DNA of 64,000 nucleotides from a virus. Taxonomy: Duplodnaviria; Heunggongvirae; Uroviricota; Caudoviricetes. The notes beneath the pieces were generated by a model. That model was not told the DNA's origin. It ran no database searches and saw nothing but the letters and a program-made list of their open reading frames with translations. Shown one piece after another: positions 8,209-64,000 of this stretch. Each line of letters opens with the position of its first letter. The stretch's first letter is position 1. The translations under genes were made by a program, and so were the position numbers. The DNA lies in the IMG/VR virus record IMGVR_UViG_650377940_000003, positions 87,323-151,322 of that record; one strand, given 5' to 3'.

Positions 8209-8293
8209 GGGGATATGGTGAAATTGGCAGCCACGCTTGATTCAAACTCAAGTGTCGAAAGACGTATCGGTTCAAATCCGATTATCCCTACCA
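8209..8293 (+). tRNA. tRNA-Leu (anticodon CAA)
   Basis: Hand-folded cloverleaf: acceptor GGGGATA/TATCCCT, anticodon loop TTCAAAC, long variable arm, T-loop TTCAAAT, CCA encoded. Confidence 0.75.
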
Positions 8294-8494
8294 TGAAGAT
8301 TAGTTGTTCTAGCTCGTTCGGGGATTGGCCGTACATTGGCGACCGGAAAGACGTCACACCGGTAAAGGACGTCAAGCCAGACAAGAAGAGAAATAAGGTG
8401 TAAGCCGACTAGCTATCGGATAAATACTCTTCGGTTCGCCAGAAAACTAGAATGTAAAACGAATGGTTGGCTGTTTCTGATCTTCTTTTTATAT

Positions 8495-8577
8495 GCGCCC
8501 GTGGTGGAATCGCAGACACAGGAGACTTAAGATCTTCTGCCAGAGATGGCGTGCGGGTTCAAGTCCCGCCGGGCGCA
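8495..8577 (+). tRNA. tRNA-Leu (anticodon TAA)
   Basis: Acceptor GCGCCCG/CGGGCGC, anticodon loop CTTAAGA, long variable arm, T-loop TTCAAGT. Confidence 0.7.
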
Positions 8578-8584
8578 TTTATAT

Positions 8585-8660
8585 CTGGGCGTAGCGAAGT
8601 TGGTATCGCACCTGTTTTGGGAACAGGGGACCGCAAGTTCAAGTCTTGTCGCTCAGACCA
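8585..8660 (+). tRNA. tRNA-Pro (anticodon TGG)
   Basis: C1:G72 acceptor typical of tRNA-Pro, anticodon loop TTTGGGA, T-loop TTCAAGT, CCA encoded. Confidence 0.7.
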
Positions 8661-8748
8661 GTCCGAAAGGGCATGTAGAATTTTTCATTCACATTATTCC
8701 CAGCTCTCTGGAAACGGAGCAGTGTGACGTAGTAAGCTGGGTATATGA

Positions 8749-8819
8749 TGCGCCATCGCCAAGCGGTAAGGCAGAGGACTTTGACTCCTCCATCACAGGT
8801 TCGACCCCTGTTGGCGCAA
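8749..8819 (+). tRNA. tRNA-Gln (anticodon TTG)
   Basis: U1:A72 acceptor TGCGCCA/TGGCGCA, anticodon loop CTTTGAC, T-loop TTCGACC. Confidence 0.65.
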
Positions 8820-8824
8820 TTTAT

Positions 8825-8906
8825 GCGGATATGGTGGAATGGCAGACACGCCAGATTTAGGATCTGGTGCTTCGGCGTGTGGGTTCGATGCCCACTATCC
8901 GCACCA
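8825..8906 (+). tRNA. tRNA-Leu (anticodon TAG)
   Basis: Acceptor GCGGATA/TATCCGC, anticodon loop ATTTAGG, long variable arm, T-loop TTCGATG, CCA. Confidence 0.75.
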
Positions 8907-9007
8907 CGGTCATGAATCGTTGTTGTTCATGGTTGAACTCCTTTGACCACTATTATTCCCGGCTCGCCAGTGATGGTGCAGTAGTGCTTTGTAAGCTGGG
9001 TTCTCAT

Positions 9008-9082
9008 GCAGCGGTCGTACAACGGCTAGTATATCAGCCTTCCAAGCTGAGGATGAGGTTTCGACTACCTTTCGCTGCTCCA
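9008..9082 (+). tRNA. tRNA-Gly (anticodon TCC)
   Basis: Acceptor GCAGCGG/TCGCTGC, D-stem GTAC/GTAT, anticodon loop CTTCCAA, T-loop TTCGACT, CCA. Confidence 0.6.
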
Positions 9083-9264
9083 ATTTCGTATGGGTAGGGA
9101 TTTTAAGCGGTCAGATCCGGCTGCGCCTGTGCGAGATACCACCCCGAAAGGGGCTAACGAAATTATCCATGTACGTTATTCTCGGTTCGCTCGAAAGAGT
9201 ACAGCGTGCCTTTGCAAGCCGAGCATCCCAGCCTAGTGATGCCAGTTGCTAGGTTGGTTCTTAT

Positions 9265-9340
9265 GCGACTGTAGTTCAATTGGCAGAGCGTCAGATTTCC
9301 AATCTGAATGTTGCGGGATCATACCCCGTCAGTCGCTCCA
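9265..9340 (+). tRNA. tRNA-like, second Gly(TCC)-type with atypical T-loop (ATCATAC)
   Basis: Acceptor GCGACTG/CAGTCGC, D-arm GTTC..GAGC, anticodon loop TTTCCAA, CCA; non-canonical T-loop, so possibly a pseudo-tRNA. Confidence 0.4.
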
Positions 9341-9567
9341 CACGCAGCCCCTTACGCTGCACCGGTTACTCAGAGCCGAAAGAAACCTATATGTTACGAC
9401 ATGGTTGCCAAGAGTGATCATATTGGAACGCGACGTAGCTTGGATAGTGAGAATTAAATTCTGAGGTATACGGCTGGATAGCTTAATGGTAAAAGCGCTC
9501 GGAAACGCCGAGAGATGAGGTTCGATTCCTCCGCTGGCATCGCGCCGACGAAAGTCGGCGTTTGCAT

Positions 9568-9644
9568 GGGATAGTAGCTCAGTTGGTCAGAGCTGGCGGC
9601 TCATAACCGCTTGGTCGCGAGTTCAAATCTTGCCTGTCCCACCA
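9568..9644 (+). tRNA. tRNA-Met/Ile2/fMet type (anticodon CAT)
   Basis: Acceptor GGGATAG/CTGTCCC, D-loop TAGCTCAGTTGGTCAGAGC, anticodon loop CTCATAA, T-loop TTCAAAT, CCA. Confidence 0.75.
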
Positions 9645-46985: not shown

Positions 46986-47058
46986 AATCAGAGCTTTGGT
47001 GTGGTATACTTATAGTGTCACATCAAGGCTCTTTATAATAAATGTAAGGAGTCTATTT

Positions 47059-48216
47059 ATGGAAAGACGTAAAGATAGTAAAGGTAAAGTCTTAAAAGAC
47101 GGCGAAAGCCAAAGAAAGGATGGAATATATCAATATCGATGGACTGATAAAACTGGAAAACGTCACACAATTTATGCGAAAGATTTAAAAGTTCTTCGAG
47201 AAAAAGAAAATAATGCTAACAAAATAATTTCTCAAGGGATAGATTTTGAAGGCGGTAAAATAACAACATATCAGTTTCTTATAAGATATTATGAATTTAA
47301 GAAAACATCAATAAAGAAATCGAGTTTGAAGACATATTATACAACGACAAACAAGTTGAAGGATACGTCTATCGGTAATACAAAAATTATTGACGTAAAG
47401 ATTTCAGACGCAAAACAACTGATTATTGATTTGAGCCAGAATGGATTGAAATACAGTACAATAAAAACTATAAAAACACTGATAAAAGCTGCATTTAAAA
47501 TGGCTCAAGAAGATGATTTAATTTTAAAGAATCCGTTTGATTTTCAGCTGAATGAAGTTATAAAAAACGACACTAAAAAAAGAGTCGCATTAACCGAACA
47601 ACAGTATTCTGATTTGCTTGAATTCGTTTTATGTGATCGAGTCTTTCGTAAGTATTATGATGACATCGTATTTTTGTATGAAACTGGAATTCGCGTAAGT
47701 GAATTTTGTGGATTAACACTTTCGGACATTGATTTTGTGAAACATGAAGTTGTAATTGATAAACAACTCATCAAAACCTCAAAAGGAGAACTCTACATCA
47801 CAGATCCAAAATCAAAAGCTGGGTTTCGGACGATTCCATTGAGCGCTGAGGCATATCACGCGATTAAAGCCATTATCAATCGTCGGCCACAAACAAACGA
47901 GATGATGGTCGATGGCTATTGTGGTTTCATCTCAATTCATTCAAATGGAACCCCGAAGACCGCTTGGAACATTGAATATGAGCTAAGAGAAATTGCAAAG
48001 GCGTATAACAGTCTTTACCCAGAGTGCCAATTACCAAATCTCACACCTCACGTTCTTCGACACACTTTTTGTACCAGAAAAGTTAGCAGCGGCATGAACA
48101 TCAAGGCAGTTCAATATCTAATGGGGCATAGCTCAGTACAAATTACACTCGATGTATACACGTCAATCGACGCTGATATGATAAAAACTGAATTCGCAAA
48201 AGTGGCACAGATGTGA
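47059..48216 (+). CDS. int: tyrosine recombinase/integrase (Tn916 Int-like)
   Basis: HVLRHTFCTR (HxxR) and LMGHSSVQITLDVYTS (catalytic Y); RBS TAAGGAG; marks the right prophage end. Confidence 0.85.
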   Translation: MERRKDSKGKVLKDGESQRKDGIYQYRWTDKTGKRHTIYAKDLKVLREKENNANKIISQGIDFEGGKITTYQFLIRYYEFKKTSIKKSSLKTYYTTTNKLKDTSIGNTKIIDVKISDAKQLIIDLSQNGLKYSTIKTIKTLIKAAFKMAQEDDLILKNPFDFQLNEVIKNDTKKRVALTEQQYSDLLEFVLCDRVFRKYYDDIVFLYETGIRVSEFCGLTLSDIDFVKHEVVIDKQLIKTSKGELYITDPKSKAGFRTIPLSAEAYHAIKAIINRRPQTNEMMVDGYCGFISIHSNGTPKTAWNIEYELREIAKAYNSLYPECQLPNLTPHVLRHTFCTRKVSSGMNIKAVQYLMGHSSVQITLDVYTSIDADMIKTEFAKVAQM

Positions 48217-48847: not shown

Positions 48848-50509
<1,662 letters not shown>

Positions 50510-60100: not shown

Positions 60101-60639
60101 TGAAAGTCACCTCTTTTTCAGTGGATGGATTTGACCATTTGCTAATTAAGTTCATTTTAACCCATAAGAGCCAGAAAATCAACATTAACGCTATGATTTG
60201 GAAGTTGCGGTTTACCGATGAAAAAACGGAATGGACTGAAAAGCTAATAATATAGAAAAACCAATACTGACTTCTACATAATCGCAAGCGACAGTTATGC
60301 GACAGTATGCTAGTGCAGGCTTCATCTAACGGATGCGGTTTACGGGTTTAGGTGTTCCCAATAAACATTCCGCAAAACGAAATGCCGTTTATATGCTGAC
60401 GAATTGTTGGCTTACGCTACGGAGACTCCTAGGGGGCTTTCCAAATTTCAAAGCCATTTTGTAAACCAGACCGTCAGCTTTCAACTTTGACTTGAAACTG
60501 GCGGTTATTTCATAACCTAGATGATTTTCGAGTTCACAACACCATATCAAACAGGATAGGCTACCTTGTTCTCTATCTTTTTGCCAAAGTTCCCCTTACA
60601 TTTTCTTGCAAGCTGCCGAAAGTATCGTATTTTCAAAAC

Positions 60640-60810
60640 TTTTTGTTGACATGGCTCGATTTTTGTGGTAGTCTATCTCAACAATTTAATATAACATATT
60701 TACTTAGAGTTCCAGCTCGGCTCCCGAAGGAGCCGGAGCAAGTTTTTGACTTTCTTATCGCTACATAACGAACCCGAATCAAGGCCATCCCTGAAGGGAT
60801 GGTCAGGTTC
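60640..60810 (+). ncRNA. putative small RNA: promoter TTGACA-17-TAGTCT, short transcript ending in two GC hairpins and T tract
   Basis: TTGACA at about 60649; hairpins GCTCGGCTCC-CGAA-GGAGCCGGAGC (60713-60738) plus TTTTTG, and GGCCATCCC-TGAA-GGGATGGTC (60781-60803). Confidence 0.3.
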
Positions 60811-61029
60811 AGGTTGTTGTGTGGCGATTTTTTATTGCCAAATCCAGCACCGCACCTTGAAAACCGCATGACCGTCTGCATGGGATACCCGGCGATGACC
60901 CCGCAAGGGAGAGCCGGAAAACGCCGCCGGAAGGGGGCAGGAAATCCATGCAGGGAGAACGGCACACCCAATATCAATTGGTCAAAATGGCCAGTTGATC
61001 TGGTGAATGACGCTTTGTGTCATTCACCA

Positions 61030-62250
61030 GAAAAACCTTATGTGTTACGGCTTACCTCATGTGGACAAATTGTCTACATGAGGTAAATTGGCCGCAGCTT
61101 GAATCAATGTAGACAATTTGTCCACATTGACTCCGTTCGTGTTACGTTTGACCTCGACTCGACATTTTGTCAAGCCACGGTGAAATCTGGTAAGTGCTGA
61201 TTTCCGGTACTTACCAGATTACTGTAACACGATCGTTCTGTGGCGGGTTACGAAAACCGCAACTCACCACTTGGAAGTGGTAAATGGACAAAATGTCCAC
61301 TTACCACCCAGCCATAACGCACAGATTTTAGTTGGTGATCATTTTGATCACCAACCAGACAATCGTAACGCTTTATTATGTAAAAGTGGTGGTTACCATT
61401 TTGGTAATCACCATATACCCGTAACATTTGGGGCAAATAATGCTTTTCATTATCCACCACACACCCGTAACAGCCAAAGGAGGATGCCTATGACAACAGA
61501 ACAATGGGAACGTGAAAATCAGGACACCCTGATGGAATATTTCATTGATGGCGACCCCAGTGTGCGCAGAATCCAATGTGAATACTGCCGCAAGGTCATC
61601 TACACCCAGACCCGGAACCGCAAGTATTGCAGCTTCCAAACCTGCGGTCACAAGATGCTGAATCTGCGGAAAAGCCTTAAAAAGCGCGTTGAGCGAGGAA
61701 AGTATACCTGCGCTTGCTGCGGGGAGCAGTTCTTACCGATTCGGGCAGATGCCAGATATTGCAGCAATGCCTGTCGGCAGAAAGACTACCGCCAGCGCAA
61801 AGCGAATGCTGCTTCTATCCTGTAAAGTGGTGCTTCCCATTTTGGGAAGTACCACTTTACCGTAACGCCTAATCGCTCACTCCCAAATCCCCAAAGTGGG
61901 AATTGGGGCTGTCATCTGAAATCAAATTATCAAAATGGTAACTTGATTTCATCCGTGGCAGAGCCACCGGAGTTCTCATTTTGATAACTTCGGTTTTACC
62001 TGTAACACGTCACTCCCACTCGTAAAAATCAGGTGGTCAAGATGACCACCTGATTCCACCTGTAACGCTGCAAGGCCTATTGAAAATCAGGTGCCGCCAC
62101 CCGGCACTTGATTCTACCCGTAACAGAATCAGTTGGTCATTTTGGCCAACTGAAAAAGCCGGACAAGTTGGTGGACAGGGATTCGCAAATCTTTGACCGC
62201 CAGCTTGCCAAAATCAACGGGCCAAAATGGCCCGTTGAAGGGAGTCAAGG
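61030..62250. repeat. array of about 15 distinct imperfect palindromes, many followed by a CGTAAC/CTGTAAC motif (iteron/oriT/ori-like region)
   Basis: For example TTACCTCATGTGGACAAATTGTCTACATGAGGTAA, AATCTGGTAAGT..ACTTACCAGATT, TTGGTGATCATTTTGATCACCAA, AATCAGGTGGTCAAGATGACCACCTGATT, CAGTTGGTCATTTTGGCCAACTG, AACGGGCCAAAATGGCCCGTT. Confidence 0.6.
61490..61825 (+). CDS. small protein with two FCS/YCS-type zinc-finger repeats (YCSxxC...YRQRK)
   Basis: RKYCSFQTCGHK and ARYCSNACRQKDYRQRK; RBS AAAGGAGGA; embedded in the palindrome array. Confidence 0.35.
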   Translation: MTTEQWERENQDTLMEYFIDGDPSVRRIQCEYCRKVIYTQTRNRKYCSFQTCGHKMLNLRKSLKKRVERGKYTCACCGEQFLPIRADARYCSNACRQKDYRQRKANAASIL

Positions 62251-62259
62251 GGGAACGCC

Positions 62260-63615
62260 TTGCCCAGTGATATGATGCTGTGCGTCATATCCTACTGGGT
62301 ATTATCTGGCGCAAAATGGCGGCAGATCCAGCAGCTTCGCTGCTGCGCTTTCCCCGCCAAGCTGTTGAAACGGAGGGATGTCTATCTGAAATTAACGCGA
62401 CACAACGGACGAGCCGGAACCCACGGCACCTATAACCCAAAACACAATGACCGCAGTTTCAACCTTGCCAACAGTGAGCACATCGACCCGGAACGAGCCA
62501 AGGGCAACATCTACTGGGACTGCTTTCACGGTTTCCGTTCGGCTCTTGACCCACAAGACCCGGACGATCTGGCGGTAACCTTCTCGGATGTGGAACGGCA
62601 GTTCTACGAAACCCACTACACGGCCTTCGTTGAAAGCCAGAACGAGCGCAACGCCAAGATCCGGCACACAGAGCGCAACCGCTCCATTCCCGACCTGTTG
62701 TCCAGCCGCAAGACCTGCCCAGAAGAAACCATCTATCAGCTCGGAACGTTGGATGAACACGCTTCGGCAGAGGACTTGCTGAGCGTCGTCACAGAGTTCA
62801 TCGAGGAGTTCAAGGCAAAGTTTGGCGACCACGTTCATGTGCTGGACTGGGCGCTGCATTTGGACGAAAGCACACCCCACATCCACGAGCGTCATGTGTT
62901 CGACTGTGAGAACAAATACGGTGAGGTGGCACCCCAGCAGGAAAAGACGTTGGAAGCGTTGGGCTTTGAGTTGCCCGACCCGGATAAGCCCCTCAGCCGC
63001 CGAAACAACCGCAAGATCACTTTCGATGCCGCCTGTCGAAAGATGCTATTCGAGATCGCCAAGCGGCATGGGCTGGAATTGGAGGAAGAAGCGGAGTACG
63101 GCAACCGCAAGTATTTGGAAAAGCAGGACTTCATCCTTGCAAAGCAGAAGGAGCAGCTTGCCGCCCAGCAGAACAAGCTGGACAAGCTGACCCTGAAAGT
63201 TTCGGACATGGAAACACTGATCGACGAGGTATCGGCTGCGGCTTACGACAAGGCGGTGGAGGTCGTGACGGACGTGGTGCGCACCGAGACCCGGAAAGAG
63301 GATATGCGGATGATCGAGGACACGAAGAAGTGGTTGCTGTCCCCTGAACGCAATGCTCCGCAGGCCACGAGAGAGTACGCCGCTCACCGTTTGGACACCG
63401 TGCTGGACAAGTTCCTCAAGACCATGCAGACCACTGCTACTCGCTTGCAGGAAAAGCTCCCGAGACCGGATGTCCGGCAGAAAGGCAGGGATCAGGTCAA
63501 GGAGAAAGCACGGGATTCCGTTCTGCAACTGTTGAGCCGTTTGCAGGCAGAACAGGCGCAGCGGAATCCATCTGCACCGCCTACCGCCGAGAAGTCAAAA
63601 AGTCGTTTTCAATAA
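62260..63615 (+). CDS. mob: MobV/Mob_Pre-family relaxase (plasmid recombination/mobilization enzyme)
   Basis: HLDESTPHIHERHVF (HxDE..PHxH motif III) and N-terminal HNGRAG...HNDR; long coiled-coil C-terminus; start uncertain (TTG 62260, ATG 62272 or TTG 62365). Confidence 0.55.
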   Translation: MPSDMMLCVISYWVLSGAKWRQIQQLRCCAFPAKLLKRRDVYLKLTRHNGRAGTHGTYNPKHNDRSFNLANSEHIDPERAKGNIYWDCFHGFRSALDPQDPDDLAVTFSDVERQFYETHYTAFVESQNERNAKIRHTERNRSIPDLLSSRKTCPEETIYQLGTLDEHASAEDLLSVVTEFIEEFKAKFGDHVHVLDWALHLDESTPHIHERHVFDCENKYGEVAPQQEKTLEALGFELPDPDKPLSRRNNRKITFDAACRKMLFEIAKRHGLELEEEAEYGNRKYLEKQDFILAKQKEQLAAQQNKLDKLTLKVSDMETLIDEVSAAAYDKAVEVVTDVVRTETRKEDMRMIEDTKKWLLSPERNAPQATREYAAHRLDTVLDKFLKTMQTTATRLQEKLPRPDVRQKGRDQVKEKARDSVLQLLSRLQAEQAQRNPSAPPTAEKSKSRFQ

Positions 63616-63634: not shown

Positions 63635-64000
63635 TTGAGCAAAGAAGTCAATCAAGAAGAACGTGCTCCCCGAACCGTTGCCGATGTGAAAGAAATGCTG
63701 ACCAAGCACTCCAACGGCGAGATCCAGCGGACGATCCAGAACTGCATCACGATTTTGCAGAACGACCATGTGCTGGCCGATGCCATCCGGCTGAACCTTT
63801 TGAGTGAACGCATTGACATTGTAAAGCCTGTGGGCTGGCCCCGCTCCGGCAAGACGCTGAACGACACTGACATGAAGTATATCCTGCGGAGAATGGAGAA
63901 GTACGGCATTTCCAGCGAAAAGAAAATCGAATCTGCTATCCGCATCGTTGCCAACGAGAACCGTTATCATCCCATCCGGGACTATCTGAACGGCCTGTAA
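63635..64000 (+). CDS. VirE-like primase-associated protein, N-terminal part (truncated by window end)
   Basis: VirE_N-like region NCITILQNDHVLADAIRLNLLSERIDI; ORF runs off the window. Confidence 0.4.
   Translation: MSKEVNQEERAPRTVADVKEMLTKHSNGEIQRTIQNCITILQNDHVLADAIRLNLLSERIDIVKPVGWPRSGKTLNDTDMKYILRRMEKYGISSEKKIESAIRIVANENRYHPIRDYLNGL

Follow-up and report, generated by a model that had tools for sequence, protein, structure and literature searches.

A hairpin array with a GTAAC-type motif beside the transfer origin of a gut mobilizable element: candidate single-strand initiation sites

The DNA analysed here is a window of 64,000 nucleotides (positions 87,323 to 151,322 of the IMG/VR virus record IMGVR_UViG_650377940_000003), the right-hand part of which carries a Faecalibacterium-type integrative mobilizable element with a MOBV1-type relaxase. 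Within this element the genes for GmrSD and for the relaxase are separated by 2.3 kb, rather than the 1.2 kb given in a first-pass annotation made from the sequence alone, and this gap contains, in order, a putative leader RNA, about ten hairpins, a gene for a small double zinc-ribbon protein, about nine further hairpins and the origin of transfer (oriT; Table 1). Hairpin signals acting in cis beside a transfer origin are of a known kind; what is new is the combination of a hairpin array, a GTAAC motif and the zinc-ribbon protein. The array has no description in the literature searched, and no annotated relative of it was found. BLAST searches with the region against annotated plasmid and phage collections returned no plasmid matches, and hit only unannotated gut 'Bacteriophage sp.' contigs.

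Table 1. Features of the region between the GmrSD gene and the right end of the window (IR, inverted repeat; RBS, ribosome-binding site; ORF, open reading frame)
Feature	Position	Strand	Details
Promoter-like site	60646-60674	+	TTGACA (60646-60651), 17-nt spacer, TGgTAGTCT; extended -10, weak hexamer
First terminator-like RNA hairpin	60715-60747 (stem 60715-60739)	+	GCUCGGCUCC-CGAA-GGAGCCGGAGC, then U5; conserved
Second long RNA hairpin	60757-60833 (stem 60757-60828)	+	Followed by U6; candidate end of a small RNA or leader
Putative structured leader RNA domain	60855-60963	+	About 110 nt; core ATGACCGTCTGCATGGG ... GGGGGCAGGAAANCCATGCAG; not singled out by the first-pass annotation
Array, left half	60974-61470	both	10 palindromes; inverted-repeat scan, folds, covariation
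Double zinc-ribbon protein gene	61490-61825	+	111 aa; RBS AGGAGG at 61478-61483
Array, right half	61822-62240	both	9 palindromes; several of the AATCAGGT...ACYTGATT family
oriT proper	62244-62313	+	IR CAAGG/CCTTG, outer IR CCCAGT/ACTGGG, inner hairpin, tail TATTATCTGGCGCA
MOBV1-type relaxase gene	62386-63615	+	Weak Mob_Pre match; RBS GGAGGG at 62372-62377
VapE-like ORF	63635-64000		121 aa; the stop codon is the last base of the window

A uniform scan of the whole window for strong hairpins (9 or more pairs and a score of 8 or higher) identified 18, of which 12 sit in positions 60950-62300; in 200 dinucleotide shuffles of this stretch the number averaged 0.02 and never exceeded 1. A looser threshold increased the number in the array to 16, and folds of single-stranded DNA (ssDNA) added hairpins at 60974-60998, 61149-61180 and 62163-62207, making a total of about 19, no two of which are alike in sequence. 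The dense array of different palindromes described in the first-pass annotation, which counted about 15, is thus present and far exceeds the shuffled controls; the ssDNA folding z-scores of its two halves are -12.05 and -9.07. Three-nucleotide loops cap 13 of the 16 hairpins in the looser set, and in 11 of these 13 the apex reads CA-WWW-TG, which bears out the A/T-rich centres noted earlier. Several stems fall into paralogous families (AATCAGGT..., AAGTGGT... and CATGTGGACA...). The stems are 23-59% GC; on the + strand the 8 nt 3' of each array hairpin contain no more than four T, and the - strand lacks any consistent T-run. The hairpins are therefore not intrinsic terminators on either strand, in line with the first-pass annotation; the features of such terminators were found only in the leader hairpins at 60715-60747 and 60757-60833.

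The second component of the array is a short sequence, YGTAAC. Of its 37 matches in the window 11 lie between 61044 and 62124, against an expectation of about 0.6 for that interval. The + strand carries eight, four in the left half (61223, 61364, 61420 and 61466) and four in the right half (61861, 62001, 62061 and 62119), and the - strand three, all in the left half (61044-61049, 61141-61146 and 61247-61252). All but one lie 0-8 nt 3' of a hairpin that is on the same strand; the exception, the - strand copy at 61247-61252, is about 25 nt from its hairpin. The array units are spaced at about 57 nt, and the right-half sites recur with a period of about 58 nt. In related loci the motif extends, on the + strand, to TWnCYGTAACRc, the tail is attached to around half of the hairpins, and the motif is kept at positions outside the stems; there too the + strand version is the commoner (146 compared with 69 unique contexts). 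As single-stranded DNA, the unit of the array would be a hairpin plus a TACCCGTAACA tail. The claims that many palindromes are trailed by a CGTAAC-type motif and that they are protein-binding sites have therefore fared differently: the former is observed, while the latter is suggested by the common flank.

The region upstream of the relaxase gene is orthologous, at 80-94% identity, in at least ten genome loci, with shorter versions elsewhere, and orthologous arrays are present throughout an 11-sequence alignment, so that the palindromes are indeed conserved in related elements. Covariation was assessed in this alignment for 185 pairs in 15 helices. It should be emphasized that, as the helices were defined on the window sequence, the proportion of cells that are paired (92.4%, compared with 28-41% when the partners were slid by 1-3 columns, and reached in none of 500 shuffles) is inflated relative to the slid controls. 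The number of pairs changed on both sides is less affected; it was 21, compared with 1-4 when slid, and was reached in 1 of 500 shuffles, the related copies being phylogenetically non-independent such that counts of compensatory cells exceed the true number of events. Examples of compensated stems are GGTGG/TCACC versus GGCTG/CAGCC, and TTGG/CCAA versus TGGG/CCCA. Thus, with both paired cells and two-sided changes above the controls, the complementarity of the arms is upheld while their sequence drifts; what is kept is the foldability of each palindrome, along with the CA-WWW-TG apex.

It could be argued that such an array reflects a functionless or selfish expansion, in which one hairpin was amplified by slippage or unequal recombination, template switching or gene conversion kept its arms complementary, and the motif was simply inherited. 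Close relatives do differ in the number of strong hairpins, which runs from about 4 to 14; orthologues gain and lose units as whole hairpins, deletions fuse paralogous arms, and the stem families described above are what amplification would leave behind. Inversions of the hairpin loops (see below) point to active hairpin-mediated rearrangement, and there are relatives that live without the array. The double compensatory changes, however, are well over the controls, and the motif, besides being conserved outside the stems, tracks a gene that is under strong purifying selection. Furthermore, the array has been kept in thousands of copies across metagenomes, the identical zinc-ribbon protein being listed in 3752 blocks of the collection. 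Expansion without function is therefore, in our view, an improbable explanation.

The nature of the changes within the stems bears on whether the hairpins are maintained as DNA or as RNA. Mismatches in the array comprise G.T, A.C and other combinations in the ratio 183:145:175 (94:70:37 in 243 unique hairpins), a near neutral spectrum in which the + strand bias of wobble mismatches is only 1.3:1. In the consensus fold of the leader, 100 nt upstream, in contrast, around 54 one-sided changes are to G.U and about 7 to C.A. The triloops of the array consist of A and T in both orientations (CAAAATG 46, CATTTTG 22 and CAAATTG 20 occurrences), whereas the loops of the leader are GNRA tetraloops. The 7-nt loop at 61012-61018, GCTTTGT, is exactly inverted to ACAAAGC in most orthologues with the stem unchanged, and triloops flip between AAA and TTT, changes that represent small hairpin-mediated inversions of a type known from organelle DNA. 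From the mismatch spectrum, the triloops and the loop flips we conclude that the array is probably selected as DNA palindromes and not as RNA hairpins; the data single out neither strand.

The corresponding RNA-level explanation would be that the hairpins are structures in the 5' and 3' untranslated regions of the zinc-ribbon mRNA, in a transcript that reads through from the leader, functioning as stabilisers, processing sites or nut-like sites with hairpin and box, and that the arginine-rich protein binds YGUAAC in RNA. Small zinc fingers that bind RNA hairpins exist, an example being Mu Com, and the parts of the locus are co-oriented with a conserved promoter and what looks like a genuine leader RNA. 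In relatives that lack the zinc-ribbon gene (an example is locus L021) the interval between leader and first gene holds a single array-type hairpin with a short U-run, in the manner of an expression platform; the array may have grown out of this lone hairpin. Within the array itself, however, U-runs are absent, A.C and transversion mismatches are as common as G.U, and the loops are A/T triloops in either orientation instead of stable RNA loops. In addition, two terminator-like hairpins precede the array, and the other strand carries three of the units in the window and one third of all motifs. We thus consider it quite improbable that the array functions as RNA.

The small gene that divides the array encodes two CxxC...YCSxxC modules and a basic helix. 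Compared with 10 orthologues, its ratio of non-synonymous to synonymous change (pN/pS) is 0.08-0.15, indicating strong purifying selection; a longer ORF starting at 61271 is an artefact that reads through hairpins. The first-pass annotation had recognized this gene as encoding a double FCS zinc finger, and while the ORF and its two modules are as described, there is no match to zf-FCS. Matches to Pfam were limited to two below threshold, zf-CGNR at 16.4 bits (cut-off 24) and Ecl1 at 23.1 (cut-off 28.3), the family is narrow (180-311 clusters, all unnamed), and an AlphaFold2 model of the protein was poor (predicted local distance difference test, pLDDT, 63.5). The link between this protein and the motif was explored by gathering loci with the leader core as probe and comparing the stretch between the leader and the relaxase gene. 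The 18 loci with a window-type zinc-ribbon gene contained 7.5 YGTAAC and 8.1 strong hairpins per kb; these values decreased to 3.8 and 3.8 in 20 loci whose zinc-ribbon gene is 46-66% identical, and to 0.9 and 2.0 in 77 loci with no such gene. In the divergent versions an inverted copy often accompanies the motif (GTTACRG...CYGTAAC), the two together closing a longer hairpin (L009 and L081). As the 46-66% class includes elements with a RepA_N plus DnaC replication module in place of VapE, the motif follows the zinc-ribbon gene and not VapE. From co-occurrence only, we infer that the zinc-ribbon protein binds the YGTAAC motif. A related sequence is found elsewhere in these elements: GGTTACA/TGTAACC repeats with a spacing of 11-12 nt flank an AT-rich stretch between the VapE gene and xis/int (L008, 8597-8810), the equivalent of which would be about 2.5 kb to the right of the relaxase start, past the end of the window. 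These look like an SaPI-style replication origin or a site for Xis or another regulator; that they are sites for the zinc-ribbon protein is doubtful, as they are present also in loci L001, L004 and L013, which lack its gene.

To the right of the array is the oriT, the most conserved non-coding piece of the region and invariant in 11 of 11 orthologues. Its inner hairpin (62269-62291, GATATGA-TGCTGTGCG-TCATATC) is enclosed by the outer inverted repeat. Relatives whose relaxases are 50-63% identical keep this architecture, the inner stem varying with compensation and the tail ACTGGGTATTAYCTGRCGCA being invariant, and have only 0-2 hairpins in the 1.5 kb upstream (0.51 per kb, compared with 0.14 per kb elsewhere). 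As these distant relatives share the oriT but so few hairpins, the array is, on this comparative evidence, to be regarded as an accessory of one lineage and not as part of the core oriT. The first-pass annotation had taken the array for the oriT; the sequence that fits is this separate, invariant hairpin and tail, located at and just beyond the right edge of the region which that annotation had delimited. It had also proposed looking for the nick near a CGTAAC motif, which does not fit GTGYG/T and is absent from relatives with the same oriT. Nicks of MOBV1 systems have been mapped at TAGTGTG/TTA (pMV158) and at TAGTGCG/TTA (IMESag-rpsI), in the second case on the coding strand of mob (PMC3105389, PMC5090054), and the oriT at hand has both the inverted repeats just upstream of mob and, within the inner hairpin, GTGCG/T (62280-62285, + strand, with the cut at 62284/62285). 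A second candidate on the + strand is CTG/G at 62308/62309 (GTATTATCTG/G), 9 nt past the outer hairpin, where the tail GGGTATTATCTG/G resembles AAGTATAGTGTG/T of pMV158. Because the inner loop varies among distant relatives and the 3' tail does not, GTGCG/T was dropped as the sole definite nick, and the + strand is predicted to be cut at one of these two positions.

The relaxase translation carries the motif HxDExxPHxH, and its gene probably starts at CTG 62386, 8 nt past the ribosome-binding site, a position at which relatives have TTG or ATG. ORF callers stretch the gene to TTG 62260, across the oriT, and a mini-ORF of three codons, ATG TCT ATC TGA (62378-62389), overlaps its start. The family is very large in gut metagenomes, with over 4600 clusters of homologues. 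A scan of species-representative genomes identified 80 loci; those at about 90% identity were nearly all from Faecalibacterium, and those at 49-63% from diverse Clostridia.

On the mob coding strand the array directly adjoins the 5' side of the oriT. In pMV158 the single-strand origin (sso) ssoU lies just upstream of the MOBV1 oriT, which is the position that the array occupies here. A known sso is a single unit, 150-300 nt long, whose conserved sequences are specific to its family (CS-6, TAGCGT, in ssoA is an example), whereas the array comprises about 20 short, independent hairpins with a common 3' tail, on both strands, and a dedicated small protein. The sso1 of ICEBs1 is hairpin-rich non-coding DNA that has to be single-stranded to work and is required if the transferred or displaced strand is to become duplex (PMC4595007). 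In the single-strand initiation (ssi) site ssiA of RSF1010, a hairpin (nucleotides 7-27) is followed a few nucleotides 3' by the primer start at T32 (PMC8567376), and the array units are similar in that the hairpin is followed by a 0-8-nt spacer and then the motif. Two inverted sites allow RSF1010 to be replicated by leading-strand synthesis only; in the array, comparably, - strand units lie to the left of + strand units. RSF1010 differs in having two near-identical 40-nt sites and the primase RepB', compared with many divergent hairpins, a 111-aa zinc-ribbon protein and no recognisable primase. A hairpin with a short recognition sequence a few nucleotides 3' is likewise the form of the G4-type priming site.

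These likenesses lead us to favour, with a probability of roughly one in three, the proposal that the array is a set of single-strand hairpin-plus-tail sites, akin to sso and ssi signals, that the zinc-ribbon protein would read to prime or organise complementary-strand synthesis. As with every functional statement made here, those on the transferred strand, on binding of the motif by the protein and on priming derive from sequence. Because the arms are variable and co-vary, no single dimer that reads duplex DNA fits and folded DNA would be called for. By homology with pMV158 and IMESag-rpsI the + strand would be the one that is nicked and transferred, and the array would be at its last-transferred, 3' trailing end, where the hairpins could fold while the DNA is single-stranded; the + strand would be exposed as a single strand, too, if rolling-circle or helicase-driven replication of the excised element displaces it. 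Each hairpin and its tail would then act as a landing site at which the zinc-ribbon protein starts or organises complementary-strand synthesis, and one priming event at the trailing end would suffice for the whole element to be copied. With - strand units to the left of + strand units, the geometry would suit priming of both strands by leading-strand synthesis only.

Several observations weigh against this proposal. The signature of ssoA, CS-6 (TAGCG[TA]), is absent from the array on either strand; the spacing between hairpin and motif is variable (0-8 nt, and about 25 nt for one - strand site); one third of the motifs are on the opposite strand; and the strand asymmetry of the mismatches is too weak to tell which strand folds. 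About 20 copies is far above the need of any sso known to us. The zinc-ribbon protein has no relative of known function in Pfam above threshold, NCBIfam, a PDB profile search or a set of 5.8 billion proteins, no primase gene is present in the element, and VapE, the helicase gene, seems to be split in the window copy. The same oriT occurs in relatives that do without the array. Six loci retain the array though the zinc-ribbon gene has been deleted between hairpins, and the arrays of L199, L179 and L109 are examples with no zinc-ribbon gene in cis; as there are several such elements per Faecalibacterium genome, the protein could possibly be supplied in trans. Finally, an sso upstream of the oriT has been argued to risk premature integration in ICEBs1 (PMC4595007).

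A different explanation, which is essentially that of the first-pass annotation, is that the zinc-ribbon protein, the relaxase or a host factor binds GTAAC/GTTAC sites and cruciforms in supercoiled double-stranded DNA and so assembles a nucleoprotein complex beside the oriT, the array being a relaxosome accessory, an operator or insulator, or a second, iteron-like control of the VapE replicon. Both orientations of the motif, including the inverted pairs in L009 and L081, and the nearly nil strand asymmetry of the mismatches are what duplex sites would display, and the GGTTACA repeats near VapE in relatives indicate that GTAAC-type sites are read as duplex somewhere in these elements, although, being found also without the zinc-ribbon gene, these repeats are probably the target of another protein. 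AT-rich centres favour the extrusion of cruciforms, but with arms of 11-18 bp extrusion in vivo is generally inefficient. The arms, which differ between units and co-vary, fit no sequence-reading dimer, and relatives with the same oriT and relaxase type but no array argue against a general requirement in the relaxosome. A duplex or cruciform role is, on balance, unlikely. The same features speak against the iterons or centromere that had been suggested, since the arms all differ and only a tail of 6-11 nt is common. P1 incA, P4 crr and the sbmA-C sites of F TraM are clusters of short protein-binding motifs by an origin with the gene for a small DNA-binding protein beside them; these are direct repeats of one duplex sequence, whereas the array keeps only 6-11 nt, on palindromes that differ.

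Two further groups of palindromic sites invite comparison. Integron attC recombination sites conserve structure over sequence, have imperfect palindromes with variable arms and short basal motifs, are active as single strands and are arrayed on elements that take up ssDNA by conjugation. The attC cores RYYYAAC/GTTRRRY are absent from the array, however, their only matches being inside the zinc-ribbon ORF (61688 and 61694); there is no IntI-type integrase or attI nearby, the integrases found being of the Tn916/lambda type with arm-binding domains, and the only ORF between units is the zinc-ribbon gene. REP/BIME sequences are clustered imperfect palindromes of alternating orientation with a conserved tetranucleotide that an HUH enzyme reads as ssDNA hairpins. 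Their stems, in contrast to those of the array, are conserved within a genome and chromosome-wide, and their GTAG is 5' where the YGTAAC of the array is 3'; no REP motifs occur in the array, no RAYT is present in the element, and its only HUH-type enzyme is the relaxase, which has its own, distinct site. The array thus appears to share position and logic with sso and ssi signals, and the principle of conserved structure and free sequence with attC. It would be the second natural example, after attC, of DNA sites that are conserved in structure. These MOBV1 elements rank among the commonest mobile elements in the human gut, and how mobilizable elements that lack a primase become established after entering as ssDNA is poorly understood; a protein with redundant hairpin signals would be a testable answer.

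Upstream of the array, the promoter-like site is conserved in orthologues as TTGACA...TGGTAATCT, and is followed by twin hairpins, the second of which contains three U.G pairs (read by eye) that form on the + strand only. The RNA fold of 60676-60975 has a z-score of -4.0, and the architecture of the second hairpin recurs with a different sequence in L017 and L081. A simple consensus scan for promoters and terminators flagged neither the promoter-like site nor the twin hairpins. The conserved promoter, the U-run hairpins and the retained architecture make a short structured transcript plausible. The promoter and short transcript ending at twin hairpins had been reported in the first-pass annotation, and are conserved in relatives; the suggestion that the transcript is an antisense RNA of the RNAI type does not hold, as it is co-oriented with the downstream genes. 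Of the view that this is an origin or oriT region, therefore, the mobilizable element, the conserved palindromes and their distinction from terminators are retained, whereas the placement of the oriT, the nick motif, the iterons and the RNAI are not.

The leader RNA domain that follows is nearly invariant in sequence across elements whose flanks are unrelated. In a consensus fold of 43 sequences the one-sided changes are almost all to G.U, covariation of the type expected for RNA. With the leader core as probe, 13 viral and at least 120 metagenome stretches were found; about 30 stretches bearing the 17-mer (the window and earlier loci counted) were chance matches without the domain and were set aside. 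Neither the leader nor the array matched Rfam at gathering thresholds, the matches in the window being tRNAs elsewhere, and a relaxed Rfam scan of 60300-62450 gave only chance matches to microRNA hairpins far under threshold. In about 100 gut metagenome and viral loci the leader stands ahead of one of three kinds of gene: a zinc-ribbon gene (36 loci), a ParB-like or helix-turn-helix (HTH) gene (37) or a P4-type primase/D5 helicase gene (22). Several loci have two copies of it in tandem, 315-371 nt apart. Examples are L021 (3954-4076), L081 (3661-3783) and L089 (1204-1326 and 1519-1641). It is thus a candidate for a new class of leader or riboswitch-like RNA, which would be a separate regulatory RNA class controlling replication genes of gut mobile elements. 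Combining these strands, the zinc-ribbon protein and some 20 hairpin-GTAAC sites might constitute an unknown multi-site module for second-strand initiation or establishment at the trailing ssDNA end, switched by a new class of leader RNA of about 110 nt whose targets in many gut elements would include ParB-like and P4-primase replication genes as well; this wider proposal is speculative and we hold it to be rather doubtful. In elements of the ParB-like class (L087, L089-L091, L099 and L101) other short hairpin repeats (CCGGAAnnnnnnnTTCCGG followed by T-runs) are located 200-300 nt upstream of the leader.

The element occupies an island with a GC content of 55-60% that extends from about 48.4 kb of the window, and the host DNA is about 40% GC, a contrast which suggests that a Faecalibacterium-type element resides in a low-GC host. 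The island contains a GroEL-like gene (48875-50509, high GC), genes for an Eco57I-like methylase, a T5orf172/ResIII helicase of 1102 aa and GmrSD (lower in GC than its island), the hairpin array, the relaxase gene and the first part of a VapE-like gene. Further along, relatives encode a VapE helicase, an HTH_17 excisionase and a tyrosine integrase, an order that matches the MOBV1 integrative mobilizable elements catalogued in Faecalibacterium, in an account that does not mention the hairpins (PMC12084326). This family, together with the weak Mob_Pre match and the relaxase motif, upholds the earlier assignment to an integrative mobilizable element with a MobV relaxase. Sister elements from other samples, with the identical zinc-ribbon protein and the same GmrSD, have a separate ORF with the VapE domain some 80-260 nt further on, and the replication helicase gene thus seems to be split in this type of element. 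On its left the island adjoins a Tn916-type integrase gene (46996-48216) with a GC content of 33%, and elsewhere in the window nine tRNA genes are clustered on the + strand at 8209-9641.

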